Shown: one piece after another, positions 407 to 52,928 of the stretch
How positions within the stretch are numbered: the first letter of the stretch is position 1
Layout: each line of letters starts with the position of its first letter
Sequence record: OR589135.1
DNA: 58,217 bases
Reading direction: 5' to 3' (one strand)
Source: Pseudomonas phage UF_RH7
Position numbers and translations under genes: made by a program
The notes under the pieces: generated by a model
Seen by the model: only the letters and a program-made list of their open reading frames with translations
Told to the model about the DNA's origin: nothing
Database searches by the model: none

Positions 407-2992
407 TCAAAGATCGTCATCGACGTCTTCGAACGCAGTTTCCTCATTTTTATTGTGCTCAGCGAAGTGCAAACGCACCTTTTCCGGGTCTGGATTTCCG
501 TCTTCCTTCATCCATTTTCTCGGGTCTAACGCGTAAACATAGCCTTCCTCTCCATCCACCCTGACGCGAGACCAGGATTTCGTCCCGACCTTCTTATACC
601 CGAGGTCGGAAAGGCGGCGGTTGATAGCACTGGTACGGCCGATTTCCCGTTCTGGGATAGCATCCACGATGAACTTTTTCAGGTCTGGCAGGAAAATGAG
701 TTCGTTGCTGACGCCGCGAATCTTCCCGCTGTACGTCGCCTCTTTAATCGACCGCGTGATGTCGTCCACTGCGTAGTCGATCATGTAGTCGCGAGCTGCA
801 GTATCCCGCGGAGCCTGGCCGGCGTCGTGGGCAAACCCTTCGCTGAACTCCCATTCCGAAAACCACTTACGCAAAGCCCCAGGGTAGCGGCGGAACGCGG
901 CATCCATGCGACGGAAGAAGTTCGGGTCACTGCGCTTGAAGGCGTTCAACACTTCGGTATTCGTGAAGTAGGATTCGACGATCAGCCACCGACGGTCTTC
1001 GTTGTCGATCGGCAGCGCCGCCGGGTCGTTGGTGAAGGCGATATATGACGCGGTGTTCCTGATCTCGAAGGAGTCCACGCCTTTCCTTTCGCACGGAATG
1101 AATGGGTTCGTGATCTTGTCCTTCAGGTCGTTTATGACGTCATATTTGTGGCGCGGCACGGAGACTTCCTCGAGCACCTTGACCAAACCGCCTTCAGTCC
1201 ACCCGGTGAACTTACCCTGGAAAATCTTGTTGTTCACGACGTCGACGTTTGTGTGGCCAAGCAAGCATTTCAGCATCGAGGCGATGATCGATTTACCGGA
1301 GCCTTGCGTGCCGCGGATGACCAGAGCGTAGTCTACGCGCCGGCCGGGGTTTGCGATGACCCAGGCCAGCCAGTCCATGACATAGCGGCGCTCCTTGTCG
1401 TCCGGGAACTGGACGAAGAAGAAGTCCTTGAGCGTGTTGATCGCTTTCAGTTCCTGCTTCGAGTAGGACTCAGGCATCTTAGCCAGGGTATCCGGGTTGA
1501 AGGTGTTCAGGAACGTCCGTCCCAGCTCGTCTTTGAACAAGTCGGTGCCAGGCAGGCGCCAGTGACGCTTCCATTCGTTGTTCGGCAGGTCGCCGTGATG
1601 CAGCGGGTCATAGCGCTGGCCATCCACAACCGGAACCGGGAATATTTTCGTGGCCAGATCCACCGGCAACGCGCCGCCCTCTTTGTCGGAGGAAACGAAA
1701 CGCTGGTTTGCCATGTTGAAAGCGCCCGGCAAAACCTCGATGGCGTTATTCCGGTTGACGAACGCGCCGGCAACCTGGTCCAGGACCCACGGCTTCAGCC
1801 ACTCCGGCAGATCGTCGGAGTTCGGGCGGTAGTCCAGATAAGATTTCGCCTCGGCTTTATCCAGCGGGCGGTTGAATATGCGTTTGAACGCCTCAATGGC
1901 CACCGCGCGCACGTCGTTTCGAGCGACGCCGAAAATTGCCTCGCGTTTCAGGCGGTCAGCGGCTTCCAGCCATTCTTTTTTGGACGTGGCCATGTCGAAA
2001 AGCGGCATAAGCTCTTCTGCAACAACGGCCGCCTGCTCTTTTTCGATCTCGCGGGCTTGTTTTATGAACGTAGCCAGGGTGATCAGGCTATCGCCATCGT
2101 GGTGGAAGCCCTTCTGCCACTTGTCTTCGAAGGCGTCCATGTCGAAATTGAAGGCCTGCGCCGACCATTTCAGGGCAATATCGTAGGCTAAATCCTGATT
2201 TTCAACGCTTATTTGCAGCGCCGCAATCATCTCAATCCAGGTCTGGTAGTCCTCATACCCCGGAATGAGCATGACCAAACGCTCCAGTTCTTCGTCAGAA
2301 CCTTCCCATTTGCGCACCAGATCAGCGTCTGACAGGCCAAAAGCGTCATCATCGCCGATGCTGGTGGCCGCCGGCCGCGATTTTTTGGCCTTCAGCTTTC
2401 TCACCCAACCCGCTTCCTCTGCCATCTGGTCGAAGGCATCGCAAATGGCGCGCGCATCCTCCGGCGTCAGCGTTGGAAGTTCATCGACCGCCGTGTTCGT
2501 CGGGTCTTTTCCGTCAACCCACCAATACGGCTCGTCGGTGTCCGGGTGAATGCCGAAAGCCACCAGCTGCTGGCCATCGCCGAGGATTTCTACCTTGCTG
2601 GCGTGCCCGCTTGGCGAAGTCCAGGTGCCGGAGGTAATTTTGGTGAACGGTTCATCGGTTCTGAACAGCATCAACCGCTTCGGCGCCATGCCGAAACGAA
2701 CCGGCGCCATGCCGTAGTCGAACTCTACCAGCTCCTGAACCGCAGAAGCCATGGCGTCGTCGTAAACGTCAATATCAACAGCCGGGGTATAGGCGGTATT
2801 CAGGCCTGCGCCGCCATTTTTGAACTCTTTTTCCCAGCGTTTCGCCAGTTTTGAGTCCGCTTGATAGGTCGTCCATTCGTCAAATGGCGGCCGTTTTGTC
2901 TTGAATCGCAGAGGCAGAAAGTTATAGCCGTTCTCTAAAAGGTCGGGCCATACCTCTGCCAGTTTGGTTTTGTGCAGATTATCGTCCATCAC
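407..2992 (-). CDS. Bifunctional primase-polymerase (Prim-Pol N-terminus) / SF3 helicase (P4-alpha / D5-like); C-terminal acidic tail ...DVDDDL.
   Basis: 861 aa. N-terminal Prim-Pol-like region (LPLRFKTKRPPFDEW). Walker A RGTQGSGKS. P4/D5-family helicase core. SD-like gtggggcgg upstream of the ATG. Confidence 0.8.
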   Translation of the reverse strand: MMDDNLHKTKLAEVWPDLLENGYNFLPLRFKTKRPPFDEWTTYQADSKLAKRWEKEFKNGGAGLNTAYTPAVDIDVYDDAMASAVQELVEFDYGMAPVRFGMAPKRLMLFRTDEPFTKITSGTWTSPSGHASKVEILGDGQQLVAFGIHPDTDEPYWWVDGKDPTNTAVDELPTLTPEDARAICDAFDQMAEEAGWVRKLKAKKSRPAATSIGDDDAFGLSDADLVRKWEGSDEELERLVMLIPGYEDYQTWIEMIAALQISVENQDLAYDIALKWSAQAFNFDMDAFEDKWQKGFHHDGDSLITLATFIKQAREIEKEQAAVVAEELMPLFDMATSKKEWLEAADRLKREAIFGVARNDVRAVAIEAFKRIFNRPLDKAEAKSYLDYRPNSDDLPEWLKPWVLDQVAGAFVNRNNAIEVLPGAFNMANQRFVSSDKEGGALPVDLATKIFPVPVVDGQRYDPLHHGDLPNNEWKRHWRLPGTDLFKDELGRTFLNTFNPDTLAKMPESYSKQELKAINTLKDFFFVQFPDDKERRYVMDWLAWVIANPGRRVDYALVIRGTQGSGKSIIASMLKCLLGHTNVDVVNNKIFQGKFTGWTEGGLVKVLEEVSVPRHKYDVINDLKDKITNPFIPCERKGVDSFEIRNTASYIAFTNDPAALPIDNEDRRWLIVESYFTNTEVLNAFKRSDPNFFRRMDAAFRRYPGALRKWFSEWEFSEGFAHDAGQAPRDTAARDYMIDYAVDDITRSIKEATYSGKIRGVSNELIFLPDLKKFIVDAIPEREIGRTSAINRRLSDLGYKKVGTKSWSRVRVDGEEGYVYALDPRKWMKEDGNPDPEKVRLHFAEHNKNEETAFEDVDDDL

Positions 2993-3001
2993 CGCCCCAC
3001 T

Positions 3002-3295
3002 TTATTGGTCGATTTCATTAGGCAGACGTTCAAAATCATCCCTGGAAATCACATCCTTCCCGACGATCGCTTCGATCGCCAGCGGCACCGCCGGCGGAAT
3101 CGTCCGTCGATTGAGTGCGGAGTATAAAGCATTGTCACTCGCGTATCCGCACGCGCGACAAACAGATGAAATGCCGCCTTTTTCGCCGAGATAGGCTGCG
3201 GCTATGCGAAACATAAAACGGCATCTTGCCAGGTATCGCTCCGATGGCGATAACGTCGGGTCAGTGACCCACGCCGGCAGCGGGAAGTTCTTCAT
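3002..3295 (-). CDS. Small HTH DNA-binding protein (putative early regulator).
   Basis: 97 aa. Helix-turn-helix-like segment SSVCRACGYASDNALYSALNRR. First gene of the leftward operon from the divergent hub. Confidence 0.45.
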   Translation of the reverse strand: MKNFPLPAWVTDPTLSPSERYLARCRFMFRIAAAYLGEKGGISSVCRACGYASDNALYSALNRRTIPPAVPLAIEAIVGKDVISRDDFERLPNEIDQ

Positions 3296-13135: not shown

Positions 13136-14769
13136 TGAAAATCAACAAAGCCAATGTTCAGCCACTCCAGGAAAACGCCATCGGCGGCGGCCTGGAAGGG
13201 GCAGAAAGGACATCACGGGAAACGCTCCTGTGGAATCCTTCAAATCGTTCGGCAGACGCGCTGATTAACCCGGTCAAGGACATGGCAGATAACCGTGCCC
13301 GCGACATCGTTCAGAATGACGGGTACGCGCTCGGTGCCGTGGCCATCCACCGGGACAGCATTGTAGGTTCGCAATACCGGCTAAACGCCCAACCAAATAA
13401 CCGCGTCCTGAACGCCCCAGACGGCTGGGCAGAAGAGTTCCAGAAGGTAGTCGAAGCCCGATTCAACTTGGTGGCCGACTCCCCGGAAAACTGGTTCGAC
13501 GCCCAACGAATGGGCACCCTGACCGACATGATTCGCCTGGCAGTCGGCGGCATGGTCATGTCTGGCGAAGTGCTGGCCTCTGCAGAATGGATCACCGACG
13601 ACCCCCGCCGGCCGTTTAAAACCGCAATCCAGATGATCGCCCCGTCTCGCCTGTCAAACCCGGACGGGGTGAGCGACTCCAAAATACTGCGCCGCGGTGT
13701 GGAATGTGATCGCCGCGGGCGCCCGATTGCGTATAACTTCAGGAGTTCGCACCCAGGAGACGTTTACTGGGACACTGACCTTTTCACCTGGAATCGCGTT
13801 CCGGCGGAAACCCCATGGGGGCGCAAACAGGTCATCCACATCATCGAGCGGCTGATGCCAGACCAACACCGCGGTATCGCAGATATGGTCGCCACGCTCA
13901 AACAGATGCGCATGACCAAATCGTTCCAAGAGGTCGTTCTCCAGAACGCGGTTATCAATGCCAGCTATGCTGCGGCCGTAGAATCCGAACTGCCGTCCGA
14001 ACTTATCTGGAAAACGCTCGGCGCTCCTGGCCCGAATGATGCTAAAGACCCGATTAAGCAGATGCTGGGGTCGTACCTCGATTCCCTGGCCGCGTATTCC
14101 CGCGGCGGCAACAACATCGCGATTGACGGCTCTAAGATTCCGCATCTTTTCCCAGGCACCAAGCTCAACCTGAAGCCGATCGGCACACCTGGCGGCGTTG
14201 GCACCGGGTTCGAAGAGTCGCTGCTGCGCCATATCGCTTCGTCTCTCGGGCTGTCCTATGAGCAGTTCAGCCGTGACTACAGCAAAACGAACTACAGTTC
14301 GGCGCGCGCCTCGATGGGCGAAACGTGGAAATACATGCAGTCGCGAAAAAAAGTGGTGGCCGACCGCCTGGCGAGCCACATTTACGCTTTGTGGCTGGAG
14401 GAAGAGATTTCGGCCGGCAACGTTCCGCTACCACCGGGTGCCCGGCGTGACACGTTCTTCTACAAGCCGATGCACAAGGACGCCCTCTGCCAATGTTCTT
14501 GGATTGGGGCTTCCCGCGGCCAGATTGACGAACTGAAAGAGACCCAGGCGGCGCTGCTCCGCATCAACGCCGGCTTCTCTACTCGCGAGAAAGAGATCGC
14601 CCGCCTTGGCGAGGATTTCCGCGAAGTATTCGACCAACTGGCACGCGAGCAGAAACTGGCAGACGACCTTGGCTTGACGTTTGCTATTGACGCGCAGAAA
14701 CCGGGCGCTAATATGGCGCAGCAGACACTGACCGCCAACAACAAAAACGAGGACAACGCAAATGAGTGA
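13135..14769 (+). CDS. Portal protein, lambda gpB-like.
   Basis: ATG at 13135 overlapping the gpW stop (TGATG). About 544 aa; size and position match gpB. Confidence 0.8.
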   Translation: MKINKANVQPLQENAIGGGLEGAERTSRETLLWNPSNRSADALINPVKDMADNRARDIVQNDGYALGAVAIHRDSIVGSQYRLNAQPNNRVLNAPDGWAEEFQKVVEARFNLVADSPENWFDAQRMGTLTDMIRLAVGGMVMSGEVLASAEWITDDPRRPFKTAIQMIAPSRLSNPDGVSDSKILRRGVECDRRGRPIAYNFRSSHPGDVYWDTDLFTWNRVPAETPWGRKQVIHIIERLMPDQHRGIADMVATLKQMRMTKSFQEVVLQNAVINASYAAAVESELPSELIWKTLGAPGPNDAKDPIKQMLGSYLDSLAAYSRGGNNIAIDGSKIPHLFPGTKLNLKPIGTPGGVGTGFEESLLRHIASSLGLSYEQFSRDYSKTNYSSARASMGETWKYMQSRKKVVADRLASHIYALWLEEEISAGNVPLPPGARRDTFFYKPMHKDALCQCSWIGASRGQIDELKETQAALLRINAGFSTREKEIARLGEDFREVFDQLAREQKLADDLGLTFAIDAQKPGANMAQQTLTANNKNEDNANE

Positions 14770-16078
14770 ATCAGCAGCACGCGCCGCGTTATCTCGGATG
14801 AACATGCGACCTGCCGCCATTGCGCCCGTATACACCGAACTGGCCAGTGACCTGCAGAAATTGTCGCAAGTAACTCCGCAGCGCGCGAAAGAAATGCAGC
14901 TCGAAGTCCGGGCTGGTCTGGCCGCGCAATACGGCGATGACGAAAATGATTACGAAGAAGAAACCCAGAAGCCGTTCTACTTTTCGTCAGGCATGGCCAT
15001 CATCCCGATTTCCGGCTCACTGATTAACCGCTTCGGCGGCTGCTATGGCTGGATCACCGGCTACAGCTACATCCAGCGCCAGCTGAATCTTGCTCTCGGC
15101 GACCCGGATGTGAAAGGCATCATCTTCGACGTCAACAGCTACGGAGGGGAAGCGGCAGGGTGTTTCGAACTGGCAGATATGATTTTTCAAGCAAGATCTA
15201 TCAAGCCATCTATGGCGGTTGTTGATTCTAACTGCTATTCTGCCGCTTATGCACTTGCGAGCGCCGCCGGAAAGGTCGTTGTAACACCAACAGGCGGGGC
15301 TGGCAGCATCGGTGTAGTTGCTATGCACGTCGACTATTCTAAAATGATGGAAGAGTGGGGTCTGAAGGTCACCTTCATTTACGCAGGCGCCCACAAAGTC
15401 GACGGTAACCCATACGAAGAGCTGAGCAGCGATGTCAAAGCTGACATCCAGGCCAGCGTGAACAAATCGTATGAGATGTTTGTGAACGAGGTGGCACGGA
15501 ATCGCAACCTCTCTGCTGAGGCAGTGAAGGCCACGGAAGCGCGGGTGTACCGCGCAGATGAAGCCATGAGCCTCGGACTGATAGACGCCGTTGCCACGCC
15601 TACCCAGGCGCTGCAGGGGTTCTATAACGAGCTTTCCGGCTCGACAATTCAACTGGAGAACAGCAAGATGCCTCAAGAAAATCTCGAAACCAAGCCGGCC
15701 GTTGTAGACCAAGCGGCACTGGACCAGGCGACTCGCGCTGGCGCAGTGGCGGAACGTGCGCGCATCGGCGAAATCCTCGGCCACGAAAGTGCCCAAGGTA
15801 AAACCAAGATGGCCCAATTCTTCGCTTTCAAAACCGACATGTCGGTAGCGGATGCGGTAGTTGGCCTGGAAGCAGCAGCACTGGAAGTTGCTGCAGCGCC
15901 GGCGAAGGATGAAAAAGCGGAAACCACCCCGCTGGAGCAAGCCATGGCCAAGACCAAACAGCCGAACGTTGAAGCCGATGGCTCTGACGTGGATGGCGAA
16001 GGCAAGGAGAACATGTCCGCCGCCGACCGCATCCTGGCGAACCAACGTGTCGCCAACGGCACCGCTGTTAAACACTGA
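14762..16078 (+). CDS. Prohead protease, lambda gpC-like (S49/ClpP-family peptidase).
   Basis: 438 aa (gpC is 439). S49 peptidase core, with a scaffold-like Ala/Glu-rich C-terminal third. Confidence 0.8.
   Translation: MSESAARAALSRMNMRPAAIAPVYTELASDLQKLSQVTPQRAKEMQLEVRAGLAAQYGDDENDYEEETQKPFYFSSGMAIIPISGSLINRFGGCYGWITGYSYIQRQLNLALGDPDVKGIIFDVNSYGGEAAGCFELADMIFQARSIKPSMAVVDSNCYSAAYALASAAGKVVVTPTGGAGSIGVVAMHVDYSKMMEEWGLKVTFIYAGAHKVDGNPYEELSSDVKADIQASVNKSYEMFVNEVARNRNLSAEAVKATEARVYRADEAMSLGLIDAVATPTQALQGFYNELSGSTIQLENSKMPQENLETKPAVVDQAALDQATRAGAVAERARIGEILGHESAQGKTKMAQFFAFKTDMSVADAVVGLEAAALEVAAAPAKDEKAETTPLEQAMAKTKQPNVEADGSDVDGEGKENMSAADRILANQRVANGTAVKH
15668..16078 (+). CDS. Putative nested scaffolding protein (lambda Nu3-like), in-frame internal start within the protease gene.
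   Basis: In-frame ATG at 15668 (MPQENLETK...). Ala/Glu-rich helical C-terminal segment. Inferred by analogy with lambda C/Nu3. Confidence 0.4.
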   Translation: MPQENLETKPAVVDQAALDQATRAGAVAERARIGEILGHESAQGKTKMAQFFAFKTDMSVADAVVGLEAAALEVAAAPAKDEKAETTPLEQAMAKTKQPNVEADGSDVDGEGKENMSAADRILANQRVANGTAVKH

Positions 16079-16092
16079 TCGGAGAGAAAGAG

Positions 16093-16494
16093 ATGGGATA
16101 CCCAACTTTCGCAGGTTCTCAATCCCAGGCATTCGGTGCCGCGGTTGAGATTTTTTCTGGTGACTCTGACGTGGTTACCACCGACGGCCCAGTGGCCAAC
16201 GACGCAGTTCTGCCGCAATACTCGGTTATCGCGCTGAACGCCACTGGCCAAATCGTCGCGCTGAATCCAGCTGGTGCAGACGCTACCGCTTCTGAAGCAG
16301 TGGCGATCGGCATCACCTGCTACGCAGCAGACGCCAGCGCTTCCGGCGCGCAACGCGGTAAACGCATCGCCTACTACTCCGGCGGCTCGTTCAACCCAGC
16401 TGCTCTGGTATGGCCGGCAGCAATCGACACCCTGGCAGAGCGCACCAAGGCTTTCGCCGGGACTAACATCAACATTCGCGAAGTGCTGGCGTAA
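16093..16494 (+). CDS. Head decoration protein, lambda gpD-like.
   Basis: 133 aa. C-terminal RTKAFAGTNINIREV versus gpD KRTAFAGTAISIV. Confidence 0.8.
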   Translation: MGYPTFAGSQSQAFGAAVEIFSGDSDVVTTDGPVANDAVLPQYSVIALNATGQIVALNPAGADATASEAVAIGITCYAADASASGAQRGKRIAYYSGGSFNPAALVWPAAIDTLAERTKAFAGTNINIREVLA

Positions 16495-16506
16495 AGGAGC
16501 AGTATC

Positions 16507-17562
16507 ATGGCGTTTGAACTCTACGATATGGCGACCCTGGTACAGGTTCGCCGCCAACAAGTCGACGTGCCGGTGTTCTGGTTGAACTTCTTCACCCAGA
16601 CACTGACCTTCGAAACCCCGTACATTGACTTCGAGAAAGTATCTCGTCGTTACAAGAAACTGGCTCCGCTGGTTTCCCCTAACGTACAGGGTAAAGTAAT
16701 CAGCAGCCAAGGCAGCAACGTAATGCGCTTTGCGCCAGGTTACGTTAAGCCGAAGTCGGTGATCGACCCATCCAAAGTGGTAGCACGTCAGCCGGGCGAG
16801 TCTGCCTATCAGCCGATGTCCCTGGCAGCCAAGCGTGATGCCGTGATTGCGGAAACCACCCGCGACCACAAAGCGCGTCACCTGAACCGTCTGGAGTGGA
16901 TGGCCGCCAACGCGGTAATCAACGGCAGCATCACCCTGGAAAGCCCGGACTATCCTCTGTCCACCGTTGATTTCGGACGCGACGCCAGCCTGACTATCGT
17001 GCTGACCGGTGCGAACAAATGGGATCAGACTACTGCGAAACCTCTGACCGACCTGAAGCTCGGTAAGAGCCGTGTGTTTGACCTGAGCCAGCAGAAGCTG
17101 AACCGCTACATCTTCGGCCAAAACGCCTGGGATCTGTTCGCAACTCGCATGGGCTTCGACAATCCGCAAAGCGGCAACCTGCTCGATACTAACTTCCGCG
17201 GCTCTGAAACCAGCATCTCTCGCGTTCTGGATGGTTACCCAGGCGCAGAGTACGTTGGCACCGTGAAAGGTACTGCCGGCCAGGGTGCGATGGAGTGCTG
17301 GGTTTATCACGCGACCTACGAAGATGACGCCGGCGTGGAGCAAGACCTGCTGAACACCAACGACGTTGTTGGCCTGGCGGACATCCAGGGCTTCCGTTGC
17401 TTCGGTGCTATCATGGACGCAGACGCAGGTTACATCGCCACTGAAGTGTTCATGAAGAACTGGCGCGAACAAGACCCAAGCGTCGAATACCTGCTGAGCC
17501 AGTCAGCTCCGCTGATGGTTCCGGGCGAGCCGAACGGTGCATTCCGCATCCGCGTAGCTTAA
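16507..17562 (+). CDS. Major capsid protein, lambda gpE-like.
   Basis: 351 aa. PGYVKPK identical to gpE. C-terminal SQSAPLMVPGEP versus IQSAPLMLLADP. SD aaggag. Confidence 0.9.
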   Translation: MAFELYDMATLVQVRRQQVDVPVFWLNFFTQTLTFETPYIDFEKVSRRYKKLAPLVSPNVQGKVISSQGSNVMRFAPGYVKPKSVIDPSKVVARQPGESAYQPMSLAAKRDAVIAETTRDHKARHLNRLEWMAANAVINGSITLESPDYPLSTVDFGRDASLTIVLTGANKWDQTTAKPLTDLKLGKSRVFDLSQQKLNRYIFGQNAWDLFATRMGFDNPQSGNLLDTNFRGSETSISRVLDGYPGAEYVGTVKGTAGQGAMECWVYHATYEDDAGVEQDLLNTNDVVGLADIQGFRCFGAIMDADAGYIATEVFMKNWREQDPSVEYLLSQSAPLMVPGEPNGAFRIRVA

Positions 17563-19437: not shown

Positions 19438-20223
19438 ATGCGTACTCCAGTAGAACCGAACTACGTCATTGGCCGCGGTGAACTGCACTTCAATAAGTTC
19501 GCTACCGGCACTAAAACTGGCACCGGCGAGATGTATTTCGGGAACACCCCGGAGCTGTCCGCCGCATCCAGCATTGATACTCTCGATCACTATAACTCAG
19601 ACCACGGTCTGAAAGAGAAGGACGAGAGCGTCACGCTGGAAGACTCGCAGACCCTGACCTTCTCCACGGATCACATTGCGCCAGAAAACCTGGCTCTGTG
19701 GTTCGGCGGTGACCTCAGCACCCTGGCCATTACTGCCGCCACTGGGCAGACGTACTCCCTGGGTGCGGTAATCCTGGGTCGCTCCTATCAGATCGGAGCG
19801 TCTGCGACAACGCCATCCGGCGCTCGCAAGGTGACCAACGTCGTAGTTAAAAAAGGTGCGACGACTGTTGCCCCCGAAGGCAACTACGAAGTCGACCTTG
19901 AACTGGGCCGCGTCTACATTGAGTCCGATGCTACAGACGTCATCGAAGGCGACGTGCTGGAAGTGACGTTCGATCAGGAGGCCTACAGCCGCCAGGTTAT
20001 CGTCGGCAAGGCGAAGGAAATCCGCGGCGCCCTGCGCTTCATTTCTGACAACCCAGTCGGCAAGCAAAAGGACATGTTCTGGCCATACGTCAAGATCACC
20101 CCGAACGGCGATTACGCACTGAAGGGCGACGAATGGCAGGTAATGTCGTTCACCGTGGAAGTGCTGAAGTTGAACGGCACCACCGAACGTGTCTACATTG
20201 ACATGCGCGACGCCACCGTTTAA
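19438..20223 (+). CDS. Major tail protein (gpV position).
   Basis: 261 aa. Strong SD. Located upstream of the chaperone/frameshift/TMP set. Confidence 0.6.
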   Translation: MRTPVEPNYVIGRGELHFNKFATGTKTGTGEMYFGNTPELSAASSIDTLDHYNSDHGLKEKDESVTLEDSQTLTFSTDHIAPENLALWFGGDLSTLAITAATGQTYSLGAVILGRSYQIGASATTPSGARKVTNVVVKKGATTVAPEGNYEVDLELGRVYIESDATDVIEGDVLEVTFDQEAYSRQVIVGKAKEIRGALRFISDNPVGKQKDMFWPYVKITPNGDYALKGDEWQVMSFTVEVLKLNGTTERVYIDMRDATV

Positions 20224-20234
20224 AGGGGATTCAC

Positions 20235-20681
20235 ATGGGACTGATGGACTATCAGCCGCCAAGTGAAGAAGTCAAGTTTAAAGGGGGGTCCTTCGAATTG
20301 AAGGGCCTTTCTACTCAGGACTTCTCATTGTTGCTGGCGCGGCATTCAGTAGACCTGGAAAAGGTCTTCGATTTGTACGAGAAAGGCGGAGAAGACGGGA
20401 CAGACTTCACTGCCGCAGGACTGGCCAAGTTTGTCATGACGCTGATAAACGACGCTCCCGGATTGGTGGCCAACGCCATCGCGTTATCCGCCGGCGAACC
20501 GAAAGCGGCAGATCATGTCATGAAAACTTTCGGTATCGCGCTGCAGCTGCAGTGCTTAAAAATCGTGGGCCGGCTAACCTTTGAGGAAGCGGGCGGCGTA
20601 AAAAAGTTCGTCGAAAGCCTTCGGGAGATCTACGGGAACGTCCAGATCCCAGGGAAGAACTCAAACGAGCTGGGCGAGTAG
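20235..20681 (+). CDS. Tail assembly chaperone (gpG analogue).
   Basis: 148 aa. Contains slippery heptamer A_AAA_AAG at 20600-20606. Confidence 0.7.
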   Translation: MGLMDYQPPSEEVKFKGGSFELKGLSTQDFSLLLARHSVDLEKVFDLYEKGGEDGTDFTAAGLAKFVMTLINDAPGLVANAIALSAGEPKAADHVMKTFGIALQLQCLKIVGRLTFEEAGGVKKFVESLREIYGNVQIPGKNSNELGE

Positions 20682-20947
20682 ACAGCGAAACACCCGAGCC
20701 GGAGGAAACCCGGCTTATTCAGTTCTATCACTCGCTCCGGCGAGACGTATGCACGCTGTTAGCGGAAGGACATCAGCATGCCATGCACTATCCGTTGTGC
20801 CACGTCTGGTCGGAAGTTGAGTTAGTCAGGCAACGGGTACATCAGCGCATGGCTACTGAGGCTGTGCTACTTCAACAGGCCATTGTCTCTGTCCTCGCTG
20901 GCGGCAAAGATTTCTCGAAATTGCTGAAGGACTTGACCGATGGCTGA
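20235..20947 (+). CDS. Tail assembly chaperone G-T-like fusion (about 237 aa) made by a programmed -1 frameshift at A_AAA_AAG (20600-20606). The -1 frame stays open to a TGA at 20945-20947, overlapping the tape-measure ATG.
   Basis: Manual translation of the -1 frame shows no stop from 20585 to 20944. The heptamer is identical to the E. coli dnaX site. Canonical G/GT/TMP arrangement. Confidence 0.7.
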
Positions 20948-23900
20948 CAATGTGAAGGATGTAGAACTACGGATCAGGGCGAAGGACTATAGCCAGAAAG
21001 ACCTGAAAGCCCTGGTCAAAACTATCGACTCGCTGACGGCCGCAATGGCCGAGCAGCAGACCGCCGCGAAAAAGGGGGAGGCCAGTTCTAAACAACTGGC
21101 CGATTCCTATAAACGCATGGAGCTGGCGGCCAACGCCCTTCTGAAACAATCCGCGTTAATCGACACCTTCAAGCAGCAGGCGAAAGCCGTTGATACAGCC
21201 GCTCAGAAAACTGAGGTGGCGCAGCGCGCTTATGCTTCCCTGGCGACGACAATCGCATCCCTGGAAACGCCGACCAAGAAGCAAATTTCCGACCTGGCCA
21301 AACTGGAGCGGACTGTTTCCAACCTGACCGTTTCTGAGGCGCGCGCCGAAAACACCTGGCGGAACACCGGAACGACGCTGAAGGCCTTGGGCGTCGACAT
21401 CAATAACGTCGCGGCTTCCGAGCAGAAGATAGCGGCGGCATCCCGCACTGCCTCAGCGGCGCTGAAGGAACAAGAGACCGCGATCCTCGGCCTCGATGCA
21501 GCGCAGAAGCGCCTGGCTCAGCAGCAGGCCGCGGCGGCCGAACAAGAAAGGATCCGCGCGCAGCAGTCGCAAGCGGCGGCCAGCACCTATGCATCTTTCT
21601 GGGTGACGGCGCTGAACGCCAAAGAGGCGGCCGAGAAAAAGGCAGCGGCAGATACCGCGCTGCAGCAGGCAGTTACTGCTCAGCGGCAGGCGCTGCAGCA
21701 GGCCGCCAATCAGGCTATCGCTACGGCCAACGGCTACCGCTCACTGGCCAGTACGTTCCGCGATGCGGCCACCGGCGCTAACCCACTAGCCACGGCGCTG
21801 CGCCAAATTATCGATCCAGCTGGGCAGGCGAGAACTAACCTGAACGGCCTGGAGGCTCAGGTGCGCGAATTGGCCACCAGCATCTCCGCCATCCGTGGGC
21901 CAGTGGATAATCTGAAAACCTCGATGCAGCAGCTCGACGCCGCTCAGAAGGCGGCCGGCAGTCTGGCGCAGATGATCGATAGCTACAACCGACAGCTGCA
22001 GGTGTTACGCCAGGCGCGGCAGGAATACTCTGCATCGCGACAGGCGGTTCTACAACTGGCCGAACAGGTCAGGTCTGCCGTATCCCCTAACAACGAGCTG
22101 AACGCATCGCTGGCGGCCGCTCAGGCACGCTTAAAATCGGCATCGCAGGAGATGCAGAACGTCGTCAACACCACGCGGCAAATGCGAGCGGGTTTACAGG
22201 ACGCCGGCGTTAATACGCGAAACCTGCAGGGCGAAGCTGCTCGGCTGACGAATACGGTCAAACAGACCACCACCAGTGCCAACGATCTGACGGCCGCCGT
22301 CAAGCGGTACGGTATCGCCGCCAAGGACGCTGACACGAACACCCGAGCATTCGGCAACGGGGCGCGCCAAAGCCTGTCCTACGTTCAGCGCCTGCGCGGC
22401 GAAGTGCTCGGCATGGCCACGGCGTTCATCGGCATCCAGTCGGCGGTGAAACTGGCAAACGACTCGCTGGAAGCGTACCGCTCAAAACTGGCCATCCAGA
22501 CCCGGTTGTCGGTGCTGGTGGGCAACGATGCCAAAGCGATCGGCAACGAGTGGAACTATCTGCAGGGGCAGGCCGACCGCCTGGGCTTCGGCTTTGAGCA
22601 AATGGCCATGTCCTACTCCAAATTCGCTATCGCCGCCAAGATGTCTGGTTCGACGCTGCAGGAAGCGCGGTTCATCTTCGAAGGGTTCGCCGAAGCGGCG
22701 CGCGCCTCGAAAATGAGCACGGACGATTTCGATGGCTCACTGAAAGCGGTTGAGCAGATGCTCAGCAAGGGCACCATCCAGGCAGAAGAGCTGCGCCAAC
22801 AACTCGGTGACCGACTGCCCGGCGCATTCCAGCTGGCCGCCCGCGCGGCGAACATGAGCGTCGCACAATTCACGAAAGCCATGGAGAACGGGCAGATCAG
22901 TTCCGACTTCGTGGTCAACATCGCCCGCGAGCTGAAAACCGTTTACAAAGACATCCTGCCGACGGCGGTCGATACCATGATTGCCGCTGAAGGACGTCTG
23001 CAGACCGCCTACTACAATTTCCGCCTGTCTATCGCAGAATCCGGTTTGGTGGAAGCCTATTCGCAATTCGTCGCTAAACTTACGAACGTGCTGAAGGGCG
23101 ATCAGGGTGCCGCGCTGGCGGGTCAGCTGTCATCGATGTTCAGCAGCATCGTCTCGCTCCTGGGGTTCATCGCGGATCATGCTGACGTGGCCAAGACGGC
23201 GCTACTGGCGATGGTCGGGATTCAGGTGCTGATGCAGTTCAGCGGATTGGTTATGGCCATCGGCAACATCGGCACCGCATTGAAGACGCTGTACACGGTA
23301 ATCGTCACGGCTACCGTGGCCATGGTGAACTTCCGCACGACTATTGCAACGATCGCCGCGTCATCGTTCATCGTCTGGATGCGCAATGCGGCGGCGGCCA
23401 TGACGGCAGCGACTGCGGCAGCGACGGGACTCAGTGCGGCCACGGCGGCCATCGTCTGGCCGATTGCCTTGGCGACGGCGTTCGCTGGCGCGGTTTACTA
23501 CCTGGTCACCGCCTTCCAGCGCGGCCGGAAAGAGGCGCTTGATTTCGCCAACGCACTGGACGTTTCGGCAGACGCCCTGCGACGCATGACTGCAGCTCAG
23601 CGCACCGCGGCTCTCGATAAACTTGGCGACGCCGCCGACGAAGGCCGTCGTCAGCTGAAAGACCTGACGAGCGAAGTCTACGATCTGGATAAATCTCTGA
23701 AGGAACTGAAGGCGCGGGACAATGGCGGTATCGGGATGAAATCGTCCATCGATGCTCTGCAGCGCAAATACAACGAACGCCGCGCCCAACTGGATGACAC
23801 CGAGAAAACGCTGCGGGATACCGAAGCCAAACAGAAAGCGCTGCAGGACGCGCAGAAGGGGCAGTTCCAATCCACCCCTACAGCGGCCGGCACGGCTGAC

Positions 23901-25424
23901 CCGGGCACTGGTGGCAGCACTGACAACATCACGGCCGCCGCCCTGGAAAAAGAGCTGGCAAAAGCCCGCACCCGAGCTGACAAGAAACTCCACCAGCAAA
24001 GCCTCACGGATGCGAAGCGAAACTGGGAAGAGCGCAAAGCGCTGATTGTCGAAGAATACAAAGTCCAGCAGGACATGATCGACAACCTGGCGAAGACGCA
24101 GCCGGAGAAAGCCAAGAAGTTGAACGAGCAGCTGCAGGGCATCATCAACGACCGCGTTAAGGCCGAAGAGATGGCCTACAACCGGGAAGAGGCGAAGATC
24201 GGTGCCAAGGAAGAAGCGAAGGGCGCACGCCGGGTTCAACTGGCGCAGGAAGTCGCCAACCAGATTTCCGCTATCGAAGATGACCTGGCCAACCGCAATG
24301 CCAAGGTAGACGGGACAGTCTCGTTCGCCGACCGGCGCGCGGCCGCGATTCAGGCCGTCAGCAATTCGTATGATGCGTTGTACGCGAAGATCCAGAAACT
24401 CGGCGGTGCCGAAGGCGCGGCAGCAAAAACGCAGCTCGACGCCCTGGTTAAGCAGCGTCAGGAAGTCGAAGGCCTGAAGCAGGATACCGAGGAAATGACT
24501 CGCCTGCAGAACGTGCTCAACGAGCGCATCAAAACCCGGACAGCGTTACTTGATGTGATCGAGAAACGCCGTGCCGCCGGAACCATCGGCGCCGGGGATG
24601 CGATCGAGCAGACCAAGGGCGTGATGGCGCAGACGGGTCCAGGGATCAACGAAGCGGCCGATGCGGTGACCAAGTTCGCTGAGTCGCTGAAAACGATCAC
24701 CCCAGACCAACTGACGCAGATCAAGGCGGAGATGGAAGGCATCAAGTTGTCGACGGTTGACTCGACCAACGCCATGGCCAACTTCGCCAAGACGGCGGTT
24801 GACTCGCTAGTCGGTAACGCGCAGACCGCGTTTTCTTCAATGTCTGCGGCGCTGGGCGATTTCATTACCGGCATCAAGAGTGGCAAAGAGGCTATCGGGG
24901 AGCTGTGGGCAGCAACCAAACAGTTCTTCGCCAGCTTCCTGGCCGACATTGCGCAGGCGATCATTAAGCAGCTCTTGCTCAACGCCATTCAAAGCGCTGG
25001 CACGGCGATGGGCGGGACGTTCGGCACGGCGATTTCCGGCGCTGCAGCAGCGGTGAACCACGCGGGCGGCATGGCGGGCGGCAGCGGACGGTCGCGCGCC
25101 GTACAGTCCAGCTGGTTCGCCAACGCGCCACGCTTCCACGATGGCGGGTTCCCTGGCCTGAAGTCGAACGAGGTTCCCACCATCCTGGAGCGCGGAGAGG
25201 AAGTCCTGACGGCCAACGACCCGCGCAACGCGATGAACGGTGGTGCAGCGCCGGGTGCTGCTTCAAGCGGCGGACCGACAGCCCCTCCGCAGAACATTCG
25301 CGTGATTAACGCCATCGATTCGGGTAGCTTTATCTCGGCCGGCCTGTCCACCCCGGAAGGCCAGACGGCGATCTATAACTACATCAAGGCGAATGCGTCC
25401 GACTTGAAAACCTTCTTCAAATGA
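20940..25424 (+). CDS. Tail tape measure protein (1494 aa; predicts a tail of about 220 nm).
   Basis: Very long Ala/Gln-rich coiled-coil protein directly after G/T. Hydrophobic central segment. Confidence 0.85.
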   Translation: MADNVKDVELRIRAKDYSQKDLKALVKTIDSLTAAMAEQQTAAKKGEASSKQLADSYKRMELAANALLKQSALIDTFKQQAKAVDTAAQKTEVAQRAYASLATTIASLETPTKKQISDLAKLERTVSNLTVSEARAENTWRNTGTTLKALGVDINNVAASEQKIAAASRTASAALKEQETAILGLDAAQKRLAQQQAAAAEQERIRAQQSQAAASTYASFWVTALNAKEAAEKKAAADTALQQAVTAQRQALQQAANQAIATANGYRSLASTFRDAATGANPLATALRQIIDPAGQARTNLNGLEAQVRELATSISAIRGPVDNLKTSMQQLDAAQKAAGSLAQMIDSYNRQLQVLRQARQEYSASRQAVLQLAEQVRSAVSPNNELNASLAAAQARLKSASQEMQNVVNTTRQMRAGLQDAGVNTRNLQGEAARLTNTVKQTTTSANDLTAAVKRYGIAAKDADTNTRAFGNGARQSLSYVQRLRGEVLGMATAFIGIQSAVKLANDSLEAYRSKLAIQTRLSVLVGNDAKAIGNEWNYLQGQADRLGFGFEQMAMSYSKFAIAAKMSGSTLQEARFIFEGFAEAARASKMSTDDFDGSLKAVEQMLSKGTIQAEELRQQLGDRLPGAFQLAARAANMSVAQFTKAMENGQISSDFVVNIARELKTVYKDILPTAVDTMIAAEGRLQTAYYNFRLSIAESGLVEAYSQFVAKLTNVLKGDQGAALAGQLSSMFSSIVSLLGFIADHADVAKTALLAMVGIQVLMQFSGLVMAIGNIGTALKTLYTVIVTATVAMVNFRTTIATIAASSFIVWMRNAAAAMTAATAAATGLSAATAAIVWPIALATAFAGAVYYLVTAFQRGRKEALDFANALDVSADALRRMTAAQRTAALDKLGDAADEGRRQLKDLTSEVYDLDKSLKELKARDNGGIGMKSSIDALQRKYNERRAQLDDTEKTLRDTEAKQKALQDAQKGQFQSTPTAAGTADPGTGGSTDNITAAALEKELAKARTRADKKLHQQSLTDAKRNWEERKALIVEEYKVQQDMIDNLAKTQPEKAKKLNEQLQGIINDRVKAEEMAYNREEAKIGAKEEAKGARRVQLAQEVANQISAIEDDLANRNAKVDGTVSFADRRAAAIQAVSNSYDALYAKIQKLGGAEGAAAKTQLDALVKQRQEVEGLKQDTEEMTRLQNVLNERIKTRTALLDVIEKRRAAGTIGAGDAIEQTKGVMAQTGPGINEAADAVTKFAESLKTITPDQLTQIKAEMEGIKLSTVDSTNAMANFAKTAVDSLVGNAQTAFSSMSAALGDFITGIKSGKEAIGELWAATKQFFASFLADIAQAIIKQLLLNAIQSAGTAMGGTFGTAISGAAAAVNHAGGMAGGSGRSRAVQSSWFANAPRFHDGGFPGLKSNEVPTILERGEEVLTANDPRNAMNGGAAPGAASSGGPTAPPQNIRVINAIDSGSFISAGLSTPEGQTAIYNYIKANASDLKTFFK

Positions 25425-40889: not shown

Positions 40890-41173
40890 GGCAGATTTCC
40901 TTCAGTGGTCAGCAGGCACCCCAGCGCTTCCAGCATGTCGAAATACTTTTTCTTCTGCTGGTGGCACTGCTTGTTGATCTGCTGCACCTGAAGCTCGGTC
41001 ATCCGGTCTTGCTCCTGGCGGCGCGGGACATAAACGGGAACGGTCCTGGACCCGTATTCCGGCACCAGCAACAGACAGATGTTCCTGCTGTGGCGCGACA
41101 TTCCTACCCGGAGCGAGAATTTCATGCCGCTCGGGTAGGTGCTTATCACTTCTTTCAGGCGTTCAGGGGTCAT
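40886..41173 (-). CDS. Hypothetical protein (95 aa).
   Basis: ATGA coupling to neighbours. Confidence 0.35.
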   Translation of the reverse strand: MTPERLKEVISTYPSGMKFSLRVGMSRHSRNICLLLVPEYGSRTVPVYVPRRQEQDRMTELQVQQINKQCHQQKKKYFDMLEALGCLLTTEGNLP

Positions 41174-41361
41174 AGTTCGTCCCTCAAGTGCTCCCAGGTT
41201 TGTTGTTCACCCCGGTGCGCGGGCGTCAGTGTCGCGCCGCATGCCGGGCATTCGCAAAGGAGAACGTCATCGAGCCGGCCGCTCAGGTCGCTGTGCTCCA
41301 GGGCTTTCAGATGACAGGCTTCCACTTCAAAACGGGTATTGCATGACGAGCAGATTTTCAT
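41170..41361 (-). CDS. Small zinc-finger protein (CxxC…CxC…CxxC), ends ...RDEL.
   Basis: 63 aa. Cys pairs. Confidence 0.4.
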   Translation of the reverse strand: MKICSSCNTRFEVEACHLKALEHSDLSGRLDDVLLCECPACGATLTPAHRGEQQTWEHLRDEL

Positions 41362-41369
41362 AGCATCTC

Positions 41370-41966
41370 CTACTTCGACCGCTTGGTTTTTCCCCGGCTA
41401 CCGCGCTGGCGCTTCTGCTGGTTGTCCTGCAGCTGCATCCAGAAAGGCTTCTGCTTAACCGGCTCCTGCTGATTGTCGGTCAGGTATGTTTCAAGGTCGG
41501 ATAACGTTAAAGGACGGCCGCAGCGGGCAACATCAGCTTTCAAAATCAGAAAGTCTGTTTGCGCTACACGCCGAAATGCTTCTCGCCACTTGGCCATAAG
41601 GACGCCCAGGTCGTCCGGCAAGTGGGCGGTTATCTTCGTCTCAGCGAACCCGTAGGCGACCGTTTGGAATCGTCTTATGTGCTTCACATCGATGGCTCTC
41701 GGCATCTCCTTCAGCTGAGGATAGCGATGCGTCGGCGAAATCCCGCGGACAATTCGAGGACAGCTAGCGTAGATCTCTGCCTGGCTTTTGCCGCCGTGCA
41801 GACGCTCTTCCAGCTCTTCGTGGAGTTCTTCGCCCAGGGCTTTCATTTTTGAGCGGTAGTCGTCATCCGGCAGGCCGTTATGTTCGTAGATGAACTCGTC
41901 GTGGATGACGCGGGGGATTTTGATAGTCACGATATTTCTCCGATTATCTGTAGAAATGAAGGTCAA
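41370..41966 (-). CDS. Hypothetical protein with basic C-terminus (198 aa).
   Basis: C-terminal KRQRGSRGKTKRSK suggests nucleic-acid binding. Confidence 0.4.
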   Translation of the reverse strand: MTFISTDNRRNIVTIKIPRVIHDEFIYEHNGLPDDDYRSKMKALGEELHEELEERLHGGKSQAEIYASCPRIVRGISPTHRYPQLKEMPRAIDVKHIRRFQTVAYGFAETKITAHLPDDLGVLMAKWREAFRRVAQTDFLILKADVARCGRPLTLSDLETYLTDNQQEPVKQKPFWMQLQDNQQKRQRGSRGKTKRSK

Positions 41967-51931: not shown

Positions 51932-52456
51932 ATGCAATCCATCATTACTAAATATCGCTCTGGTTCACGTCGCATTTCCGCTAAATGCTGGAACGGTCAA
52001 ACCACGCTTGATTATGATTTGGCGTTGAACAGTGAAGATAATCACAAGGCCGCCGCTGAAAAGCTGGTTTCAATTTTGAATAAAGGCCGCAATGTTTCGT
52101 GGGGTATCGTTTCCTCCGCGCCTTTGATTGACGGCGGGCAATGGATTTTCATTATCAATTATGTGCCGGACGTCCCACCGATGCATATGTCGATCACGGT
52201 TAAGTTTCTGCCGTGTAATAATTCCAAACCGGCGCGAATGAAAGTTTTTTCGTGGCTGTATGAAAAAGGTTTCGAGGTCGCATATTCGCCTAGCATTGCT
52301 GATGCCTCGGATATGTATCAATGTGCGCTGTATGCAGCAAACAAAATGCTGGAAGAAGTGAACGGCGTGGCGTTTGAACATAATTGCGAGTATCGCATTA
52401 AAGATTATGTGCATACTTTCGACGGTAACCGCATTTTCACCTTGGAGTTAATATAA
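51932..52456 (+). CDS. Hypothetical protein (174 aa).
   Basis: ORF with SD aagggg. Confidence 0.45.
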   Translation: MQSIITKYRSGSRRISAKCWNGQTTLDYDLALNSEDNHKAAAEKLVSILNKGRNVSWGIVSSAPLIDGGQWIFIINYVPDVPPMHMSITVKFLPCNNSKPARMKVFSWLYEKGFEVAYSPSIADASDMYQCALYAANKMLEEVNGVAFEHNCEYRIKDYVHTFDGNRIFTLELI

Positions 52457-52743
52457 TGGCTACGGTGATTACTTTATCTGAAGCGTGCCCGATTATATAC
52501 GGGCACGAATTGCCGGAAAACGTGCGGGAAGATTATGATTATATTTCCGACGATGAACTACCGGAAACCTCATTCTTTAAAATTGAGGGCGTTTATCATT
52601 GTATATCTGATTTCGTTAAATCGGATACCTACGCGGCGCAAGGTTTCCACGGCATAGCGGGCGAAACTGCGTTTAGTTCAATTCTTATCGGCGTCATTGA
52701 TGGCGATAGTGATCATTTAAAGGTAGGCCGCGTATGCTCATAA
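52456..52743 (+). CDS. Hypothetical protein (95 aa).
   Basis: ATAATG coupling. Confidence 0.4.
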   Translation: MATVITLSEACPIIYGHELPENVREDYDYISDDELPETSFFKIEGVYHCISDFVKSDTYAAQGFHGIAGETAFSSILIGVIDGDSDHLKVGRVCS

Positions 52744-52928
52744 TCGCAATCCTTGGCTATCTGGTCATCGCGCTTTACATCGCGCACGATGTCCGCGCAG
52801 TTATCAAACGTTGCCGCCCGGAGTTGCGCCAATGTTTCGGCCGCAAATCGGTTTACCTGCGTGAACGTAAAACAGGCCGCCTGATCGCCTGTTCCAATAA
52901 CCCTTTTACTTTATTGCTGGTGGCTTAA
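52734..52928 (+). CDS. Small membrane protein (1 TM).
   Basis: 64 aa. Hydrophobic N-terminus. Confidence 0.35.
   Translation: MLIIAILGYLVIALYIAHDVRAVIKRCRPELRQCFGRKSVYLRERKTGRLIACSNNPFTLLLVA

Follow-up and report, generated by a model that had tools for sequence, protein, structure and literature searches.

Overlapping reading frames at the tail gene locus

The 58,217-nt sequence of Pseudomonas phage UF_RH7 (OR589135.1), referred to here in its entirety as the window, represents a Chi-like siphovirus genome (Casjensviridae). This report concerns a short region within its tail genes, where two overlapping reading frames upstream of the tape measure gene appear to be joined by a programmed -1 ribosomal frameshift, giving a fusion protein comparable to the G-T tail assembly chaperone of phage lambda. 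A first-pass annotation of the window had proposed this recoding event. Serratia phage vB_SmaS-Smarc1 (hereafter Smarc1) is collinear with the window and 92.2% identical to it over 25 kb, Pectobacterium phages MA11 and MA12 (Casjensviridae, Newforgelanevirus) are 81.5% identical to it, and Salmonella phage Chi is a distant relative. In the Chi genome paper, AH2 and BcepNazgul are given as the closest of the distant relatives of Chi-like phages (PMC4342425).

The open reading frame (ORF) called G here (20235..20681, plus strand) encodes, by standard decoding, a 148-aa tail assembly chaperone that matches Pfam PF23789 Pre_tape_measure with E=1.4e-44 and 151.9 bits (cutoff 27). Downstream lies the tape measure protein gene (20940..25424, plus strand; 1494 aa), which matches PF20155 TMP_3 (E=7.6e-22) and PHROG 2335 (E=2e-214). 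These two ORFs are in a common frame, and the T segment between them is in the -1 frame. Near the end of G the codons run ...GGC GTA AAA AAG TTC... (protein ...EEAGGVKKFVESL...), with GTA AAA AAG occupying 20598-20606. The heptamer A_AAA_AAG (20600..20606, plus strand) is therefore in X_XXY_YYZ phase relative to the G frame, and is the proposed site of a -1 tandem slip by tRNA-Lys.

The -1 frame is free of stop codons across 20585..20947 (plus strand), a stretch bounded by TGA at 20582-20584 and TGA at 20945-20947. Within it, the T segment proper (20606..20947, plus strand) comprises 113 codons and a stop that would be read by shifted ribosomes only. Positions 20607..20681 (plus strand) form a dual-coding overlap, in which the 0 frame specifies the C-terminal tail of G and the -1 frame the linker of G-T. 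The predicted fusion, join(20235..20606, 20606..20947), is 237 aa long. Its -1 frame portion includes VRRKPSGDLRERPDPREELKRAG...KDFSKLLKDLTDG, and the peptides AGRVDSETPEPEETR and LIQFYHSLR are encoded in this frame between 20606 and 20782. The fusion junction reads ...AGGVKKVRRKPSGD..., where trypsin would leave junction pieces that are too small.

At its 3' end the T segment is closely interlocked with the next gene. The T stop and the tape measure ATG (20940) overlap by 8 nt (ATGGCTGA), and the sequence that encodes the T terminus ...K-D-L-T-D-G-stop (20926-20947) also carries this ATG and, inside the last T codons, the AAGGA of the tape measure gene (20927..20931, plus strand), which resembles a Shine-Dalgarno (SD) sequence. 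The first-pass annotation had located the GTA AAA AAG codons, both limits of the open -1 frame and the tape measure ATG correctly, and the T peptide that it quoted is the true -1 frame translation.

Heptamers of the X_XXY_YYZ type number 268 on both strands of the window, or ~1 per 434 nt, and AAAAAAG occurs 10 times in the corresponding 116 kb. The productive zone at 20585-20681 (97 nt, ~31 in-phase positions) holds exactly one in-phase X_XXY_YYZ heptamer. The -1 extension that follows A_AAA_AAG is 113 codons long, whereas the median for heptamers located in long open stretches is 14. Longer -1 extensions at -16156, -9957/-9954 and +14347 were dismissed, as these stretches are antisense to, or out of phase with, evident genes. 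The arrangement of slip site and T is more than chance.

Conservation of the slip site among relatives

The G ORF, the zone of open -1 frame and the in-phase heptamers were computed for each of 21 loci, namely 19 phage loci representing at least 15 Casjensviridae genera and two metagenomic contigs. All 21 loci have an in-phase slip site in one alignment column, within the motif (T/L)-F-x-(D/E)-x-G-G-x-K/E-K. Seven heptamer types occupy this column: A_AAA_AAG (13 loci), G_GGA_AAC (two loci), the near-canonical G_GAA_AAG (two loci), and A_AAA_AAC, G_GGA_AAG, G_GGA_AAA and C_CCA_AAA (one locus each). The letters of the heptamer vary while the slippery pattern and its position stay, which is, as judged from these alignments, a comparative signature of function.

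The same fusion could arise at the level of the transcript if RNA polymerase added one A in the A6 run, so that some of the mRNA would carry G-T as one continuous frame. Such slippage is a recognized alternative route to fusions of this kind (PMC5009743). Six consecutive A residues are indeed present at the site, and an extra A would yield the same protein (V-K-K-V-R). However, those relatives that carry G_GGA_AAC, G_GGA_AAG, G_GGA_AAA, C_CCA_AAA or G_GAA_AAG have runs of just 3-4 identical bases. Because the X_XXY_YYZ pattern survives there in sequence that lacks a long homopolymer, the conserved property fits tandem tRNA re-pairing and not polymerase slippage. Moreover, efficient transcriptional slippage in bacteria usually needs runs of ~8-9 or more. 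Polymerase slippage is thus a quite improbable source of the fusion, and ribosomal frameshifting is the reading pursued below.

The computed slip sites also agree with those chosen by depositors of related genomes. For Sano, the automatic call equals the depositors' 'slippage point' feature. Fusions built at the heptamers of Chi (AIU37952.1), Enc34 (AFB84033.1), BcepNazgul (AAQ63365.2) and RcJoli (UUV43508.1) reproduce the deposited proteins letter-for-letter. One locus in the set, that of Aeromonas phage LAh_7 (MK838113.1), has several X residues in the translation of its G ORF (386-835 of the extracted locus), reflecting ambiguous bases in the deposited sequence.

The junction with the tape measure gene is retained as well. 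An SD-like motif lies 7-10 nt 5' of the tape measure start at 21 of 21 loci, and ATGGCT(A/G)A is found at the T/tape measure junction in most enterobacterial Chi-like phages.

Coding evidence for the -1 frame

The predicted fusion aligns collinearly with PHROG 11703, whose members are fused G-T proteins of Chi-like and Nazgul-like phages, such that residues 1-237 correspond to positions 1-232 of the 232-position profile (E=5.9e-63). When the pieces are compared separately, G matches positions 1-130 and T matches positions 128-232. A tblastn search with the fusion, made against a collection of 50,697 phage records that does not include this genome, matched 259 records, and in 228 of these the match spans 80% or more of the fusion, split into two pieces that are in two frames. 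The fusion is 97.9% identical to the corresponding region of Smarc1.

Substitution patterns likewise indicate that the -1 frame is translated. Relative to MA11, the T-only stretch (20682-20944) has 2, 1 and 15 substitutions at codon positions 1, 2 and 3 of the -1 frame. In addition, all loci share a conserved T core, LR..V(S)..L...GH..A..YP(L)..(W).E....R, located 3' of a variable charged linker.

A conserved, translated T could also be explained without any frameshift if T were a separate small protein with its own start. An ATG-initiated ORF of 54 aa is present at 20783..20947, and stand-alone mini-T ORFs are annotated in many GenBank/RefSeq records, including those of SAKp02, PSTCR9, DoubleBarrel, KPN N137 and BP12C. 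Yet this ATG comes too late to account for the selection that is observed. The part of T upstream of ATG 20783, which is the first possible start, already shows coding-type substitution in the -1 frame relative to MA11 (0/1/6 by codon position), and the conserved core LR..V..L...GH..A begins ~20 codons before this ATG. Similarly, the PHROG 11703 alignment covers T from residue 9 on. From 20585 to 20782 the -1 frame lacks ATG, GTG and TTG altogether. The Met column itself is not conserved, being R, G, W, T or C elsewhere, and the first possible T-frame starts fall at differing places that do not align among the 19 phage loci. Finally, the nearest purine-rich motif, GAAGGA, is 12 nt from ATG 20783, which is poor spacing. 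Independent initiation of T is consequently very hard to credit.

The 0 frame beyond the slip site is informative in the same way. The tail that unshifted ribosomes add to G (KKF.ES.L) is conserved among homologues, residues F125, E127 and L129 are nearly invariant, and the stop falls at a similar place. Since this tail is conserved in addition to T, both products are maintained by selection. This finding also bears on the concern that the two frames might be an artefact, either because a one-base homopolymer sequencing error split a single ORF or because the -1 ORF is noncoding and open by chance. Some sequencing chemistries do make errors in homopolymer runs, and a 113-codon open frame at 56% GC has a non-zero probability of arising by chance. 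Nevertheless, neither error nor chance sits well with a two-frame layout seen in 21 loci that were sequenced independently and in 228 of the 259 matched phage records, with a conserved 0-frame continuation, or with -1 frame substitutions biased to the third position. Such an artefact has next to no likelihood, leaving the production of both G and a frameshifted G-T as the preferred interpretation.

A model for frameshifting and the points that weigh against it

Conserved -1 frameshifting at G/G-T loci has been described previously, as have the functions of G, G-T and T (PMC5009743, which summarizes Xu et al. 2013 and 2014 on lambda G and T). The heptamer A_AAA_AAG is the shift site of dnaX and the most shift-prone heptamer in E. 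coli, a property attributed to the single tRNA-Lys (mnm5s2U34) that reads both AAA and AAG and that pairs better with AAA (PMC5009743).

By this precedent, a minority of ribosomes translating G would reach AAA AAG (20601-20606) with tRNA-Lys in both the P and A sites, and both tRNAs would step back by one base onto A_AAA_AAG (20600-20605). From GTT (20606) onward, decoding would follow the -1 frame until it meets the TGA at 20945. As no tRNA genes are encoded in the window, a host tRNA-Lys would do the slipping. The resulting 237-aa G-T protein would consist of G residues 1-124, a charged linker and a conserved T domain of ~80 aa.

If the lambda analogy holds, G would be the abundant tail assembly chaperone made by standard decoding, and G together with the G part of G-T would coat the tape measure protein. 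The T domain would recruit the major tail protein so that the tube polymerizes around the tape measure, and neither G nor G-T would stay in the virion. These binding partners and roles are carried over from lambda and should be read as provisional for UF_RH7.

Stimulatory elements were sought on both sides of the heptamer. The first-pass annotation had called the heptamer dnaX-type and had suggested checking for RNA structure downstream of 20606. Folding of 20607-20700 and of 20570-20660 gave z = +0.75 and -0.11, no better than shuffled sequences, and an RNAalifold consensus of 12 A_AAA_AAG loci contained 0 pairs. The dnaX comparison thus holds for the heptamer but not for a downstream stem-loop. 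A 5-bp hairpin in the minimum free energy (MFE) structure, CGGCG/CGUCG, which places the heptamer in its loop, was rejected as a stimulator because it is not kept in MA11.

On the 5' side, an SD-like GAGG (20583..20586, plus strand) is located 13 nt from the heptamer and might be a dnaX-like stimulator. A spacing of this size is within what has been reported for the dnaX SD-like element. GAGG occurs 10-13 nt 5' of the heptamer at ~8 of the 21 loci, where it coincides with conserved F-E-E (Glu) codons. It is lost in MA11 by a synonymous change and is absent from the Chi group, and is therefore not a conserved feature.

Given that no stimulatory structure was found, the efficiency of the shift is probably low, at a few per cent. 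By analogy, such a value would be consistent with the G:G-T ratio of roughly 30:1 for lambda (PMC5009743).

Several results count against the frameshift or fail to provide support for it that might have been expected. These include the lack of better-than-shuffled folding, of consensus RNA pairs and of a conserved upstream GAGG. Also, the searchable literature yielded no direct experimental evidence, such as a fusion peptide or a reporter assay, for this phage or for any member of the Casjensviridae. The fusions built for Smarc1 and Sano are absent as exact sequences from the protein collection, and so neither confirm nor contradict the junctions of the depositors. In an AlphaFold model of full-length G-T, the T domain and linker have pLDDT values below 55, because no alignment covers them (the homologue search gave G ORFs only). 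A Foldseek search of PDB with this model found nothing, its best match having E=0.27, and an hmmsearch against PDB likewise gave nothing under E=0.17.

Weighing these points together with the supporting observations, we assign a probability of roughly 0.9 to the reading that a -1 frameshift at A_AAA_AAG produces a G-T-like tail assembly chaperone fusion just 5' of the tape measure gene. This prediction is supported by synteny, by membership in PF23789 and PHROG 11703, by coding-type substitution before any possible start, by a slip site at 21 of 21 loci, and by joined coding sequence (CDS) annotations in relatives. The slippage itself we infer from sequence comparisons. The central proposal of the first-pass annotation is upheld on these grounds.

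Relationship to known recoding systems

The closest known systems are the joined CDSs of other Casjensviridae, namely Smarc1 QOI70059.1, Chi gene 23 (AIU37952.1), Enc34 AFB84033.1, BcepNazgul G-T (AAQ63365.2) and AH2 gp55/56. These fusions are orthologous to that of the window, occupy the same place, flanked by the major tail protein and tape measure genes, belong to the same family and use the same slip column, with A_AAA_AAG common to most members. The window differs from them by sequence divergence only (~92% nucleotide identity to Smarc1). The Smarc1 record has a two-piece CDS, 'pre-tape measure frameshift protein', that extends exactly from the G start to the T stop, and joined CDSs named 'tail assembly chaperone' are present in Chi and Utah. 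Overall, joined annotations were found for Smarc1, Chi, Utah, Enc34, BcepNazgul, Sano and RcJoli. For the G/G-T pair of Burkholderia phage AH2, A_AAA_AAG has been predicted as the shift heptamer (PMC3483164). The frameshift is thus already known, having been annotated in the closest relatives and published in this family.

The resemblance to lambda was described in the first-pass annotation as exact, which is an overstatement. The gene order V-G-T-H is common to both phages, as is an X_XXY_YYZ heptamer for -1 shifting that lies toward the 3' end of G and whose last four letters are A_AAG. T lacks its own start in both, and the 8-nt T/H overlap is identical (ATGGCTGA; 1543-1550 of the extracted lambda locus). 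However, lambda uses G_GGA_AAG located 5 codons before the G stop, whereas the window has A_AAA_AAG located 24 codons before it, and the fusions are 279 aa and 237 aa, respectively. Lambda G and T belong to PF06894 (Phage_TAC_2) and PF06223 (Phage_tail_T), in contrast to the window, whose G falls in PF23789 and whose T is without a Pfam family. Neither G, T nor the fusion from the window matches PF06894 or PF06223, although lambda's own proteins do. The hhalign probability for the window versus lambda G/T is 0.2%, and BLASTP gave no significant collinear hit. From these comparisons, the locus is best described as working like lambda G/G-T without being a sequence relative of lambda G or T.

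The likeness to E. coli dnaX lies in the identical heptamer and the single tRNA-Lys, and perhaps also in the GAGG 13 nt upstream. Unlike dnaX, the window has no stable or conserved downstream stem-loop, and its GAGG is not conserved among relatives. For these two reasons the efficiency of the shift is expected to be far below the ~50% of dnaX. Furthermore, the shifted frame of dnaX ends almost at once and gives a shorter protein, whereas the shift in the window would add 113 residues. The HK97 tail assembly chaperone (PDB 2OB9) and YqbN of a B. subtilis prophage (3KLU) are also listed among the closest known systems.

The conserved tail assembly chaperone frameshift of long-tailed phages reportedly goes back to Levin, Hendrix and Casjens in 1993 and to Xu, Hendrix and Duda in 2004. 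The window locus shares with the class of Xu et al. 2004 the location of the ORFs, a -1 overlap without a conserved start, an in-phase heptamer, a retained heptamer position and selection on both coding frames. In biological terms the locus offers nothing new, being a further case of the recoding event that is most widely conserved among tailed phages.

Consequences for annotation

The correct annotation of the locus is two CDSs that share one start, G at 20235..20681 and G-T at join(20235..20606, 20606..20947). The errors to avoid are a 258-nt "gap" and a stand-alone 54-aa ORF, errors that persist in MA11, MA12 and many RefSeq records of Chi-like phages. The first-pass annotation attributed such omissions to the shared frame of G and the tape measure gene. 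The shared frame is real, but the actual cause is that ORF callers cannot model frameshifts.

Labels in public records are inconsistent. T is left unannotated in MA11 and MA12 (2780-3037 of the extracted MA11 locus), and RefSeq applies the label 'tail length tape measure protein' to G and mini-T ORFs. In Salmonella phage 37, G/T fragments are labeled 'capsid protein' and 'capsid assembly protein', and the tail terminator is labeled 'transposase'. Unannotated Chi-like major tail and G-T sequences, the latter with 40% aa identity in two frames, are also present in GU169904.1 (Staphylococcus phage SA1, 147 kb), which suggests that this record is a chimeric or contaminated assembly.

A block of low nucleotide divergence around T

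The sole point that might repay further work is the within-clade conservation of the T region at the nucleotide level. A block of unusually low divergence relative to Smarc1 (20547..21043, plus strand), evident also in counts of silent sites, begins ~50 nt 5' of the slip site, continues through T and ends ~50-100 nt into the tape measure gene. Only two differences from Smarc1 (20640 and 20725) occur between 20546 and 21044, compared with ~8% divergence on either side.

Within three clades, silent substitutions in the block are ~3- to 20-fold rarer than in neighboring genes, depending on the comparison. For codons that specify identical amino acids, T-only has 1/86 silent changes relative to Smarc1, whereas six neighboring gene segments have 12-29% (p=2e-8); the values relative to MA11 are 13/82 and 34-48% (p=2e-6). 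Beyond the clade of the window itself, the deficit is seen in Chivirus and Yonseivirus. The Klebsiella phages SAKp02 and KPN N137 differ by 3/76 silent changes versus 45/233. Among seven Chivirus genomes, silent polymorphism in codons with an invariant amino acid amounts to 1/79 in T-only and 0/25 in the overlap, versus 17-27% elsewhere, and variable sites break off 5' of the heptamer at -27, to reappear only at +372.

The block might carry an extra function at the nucleotide level, perhaps tied to its reading by shifted ribosomes. It might, for example, be an RNA element that sets the G:G-T:tape measure ratio, or one that protects a ribosome-poor stretch. We consider a function of this type unlikely. 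The silent deficit is gone between genera (44% in T and 47% in G for Chi versus Enc34), which argues against a fixed nucleotide-level element. No unusual thermodynamic RNA structure is supported in the block (z = -0.68).

Two specific candidates likewise found no support. RNA of the T region might have hidden the SD and AUG of the tape measure gene, coupling tape measure synthesis to that of G-T, but the accessibility of these sites is no lower than in codon-shuffled sequences (mean z = +0.10, 21 loci). The other candidate was an ORF concealed within T, but none of the alternative frames stays open consistently (minimum 21-26 codons), leaving small ORFs only. More likely explanations for the block are recent recombinational homogenization within clades, or a sweep of the block, the protein product of which is highly constrained.

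Neighboring genes and other slippery or misleading sites

The gene order leading to the locus is head-closure, neck, tail terminator (PHROG 5078), major tail protein, G, T and tape measure. The major tail (tube) protein gene (19438..20223, plus strand) matches PHROG 807, 'major tail protein with Ig-like domain', with E=1.3e-62, and is annotated in the same way in Smarc1 and Chi. Its center (19550-20000) is the most diverged sequence relative to Smarc1 in the 5-kb neighborhood (75-87% identity, versus 91-97% for the flanks), a pattern that a mosaic patch, or else a variable surface or Ig-like region, could produce. Promoters, terminators and composition anomalies were sought in 20100-21300 and none were found, which leaves no such signal to explain the low-divergence block around T.

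In-phase heptamers are found at two further places, each a few codons short of the end of an ORF. These are TTTAAAG (52716-52722, plus strand) in the ORF at 52456..52743, whose -1 frame runs into the ORF at 52734..52928, and GGGAAAA (41394-41388, minus strand) in the ORF at 41370..41966, whose -1 frame runs into 41170..41361. The downstream ORFs are probably ordinary adjacent genes, since both have their own ATG.

An A7G run, AAAAAAAG (14346-14353, plus strand), is located in an open stretch of ~583 codons in the head/packaging region. It includes an in-phase A_AAA_AAA with a -1 extension of 32 codons, and is a potential slippage-prone or sequencing-error-prone spot. Heptamer scans also return a false long -1 extension from a 599-aa ORF at 15673-17472 (minus strand), antisense to the major capsid region (16507..17562, plus strand), which is almost certainly spurious because its translation is of low complexity.

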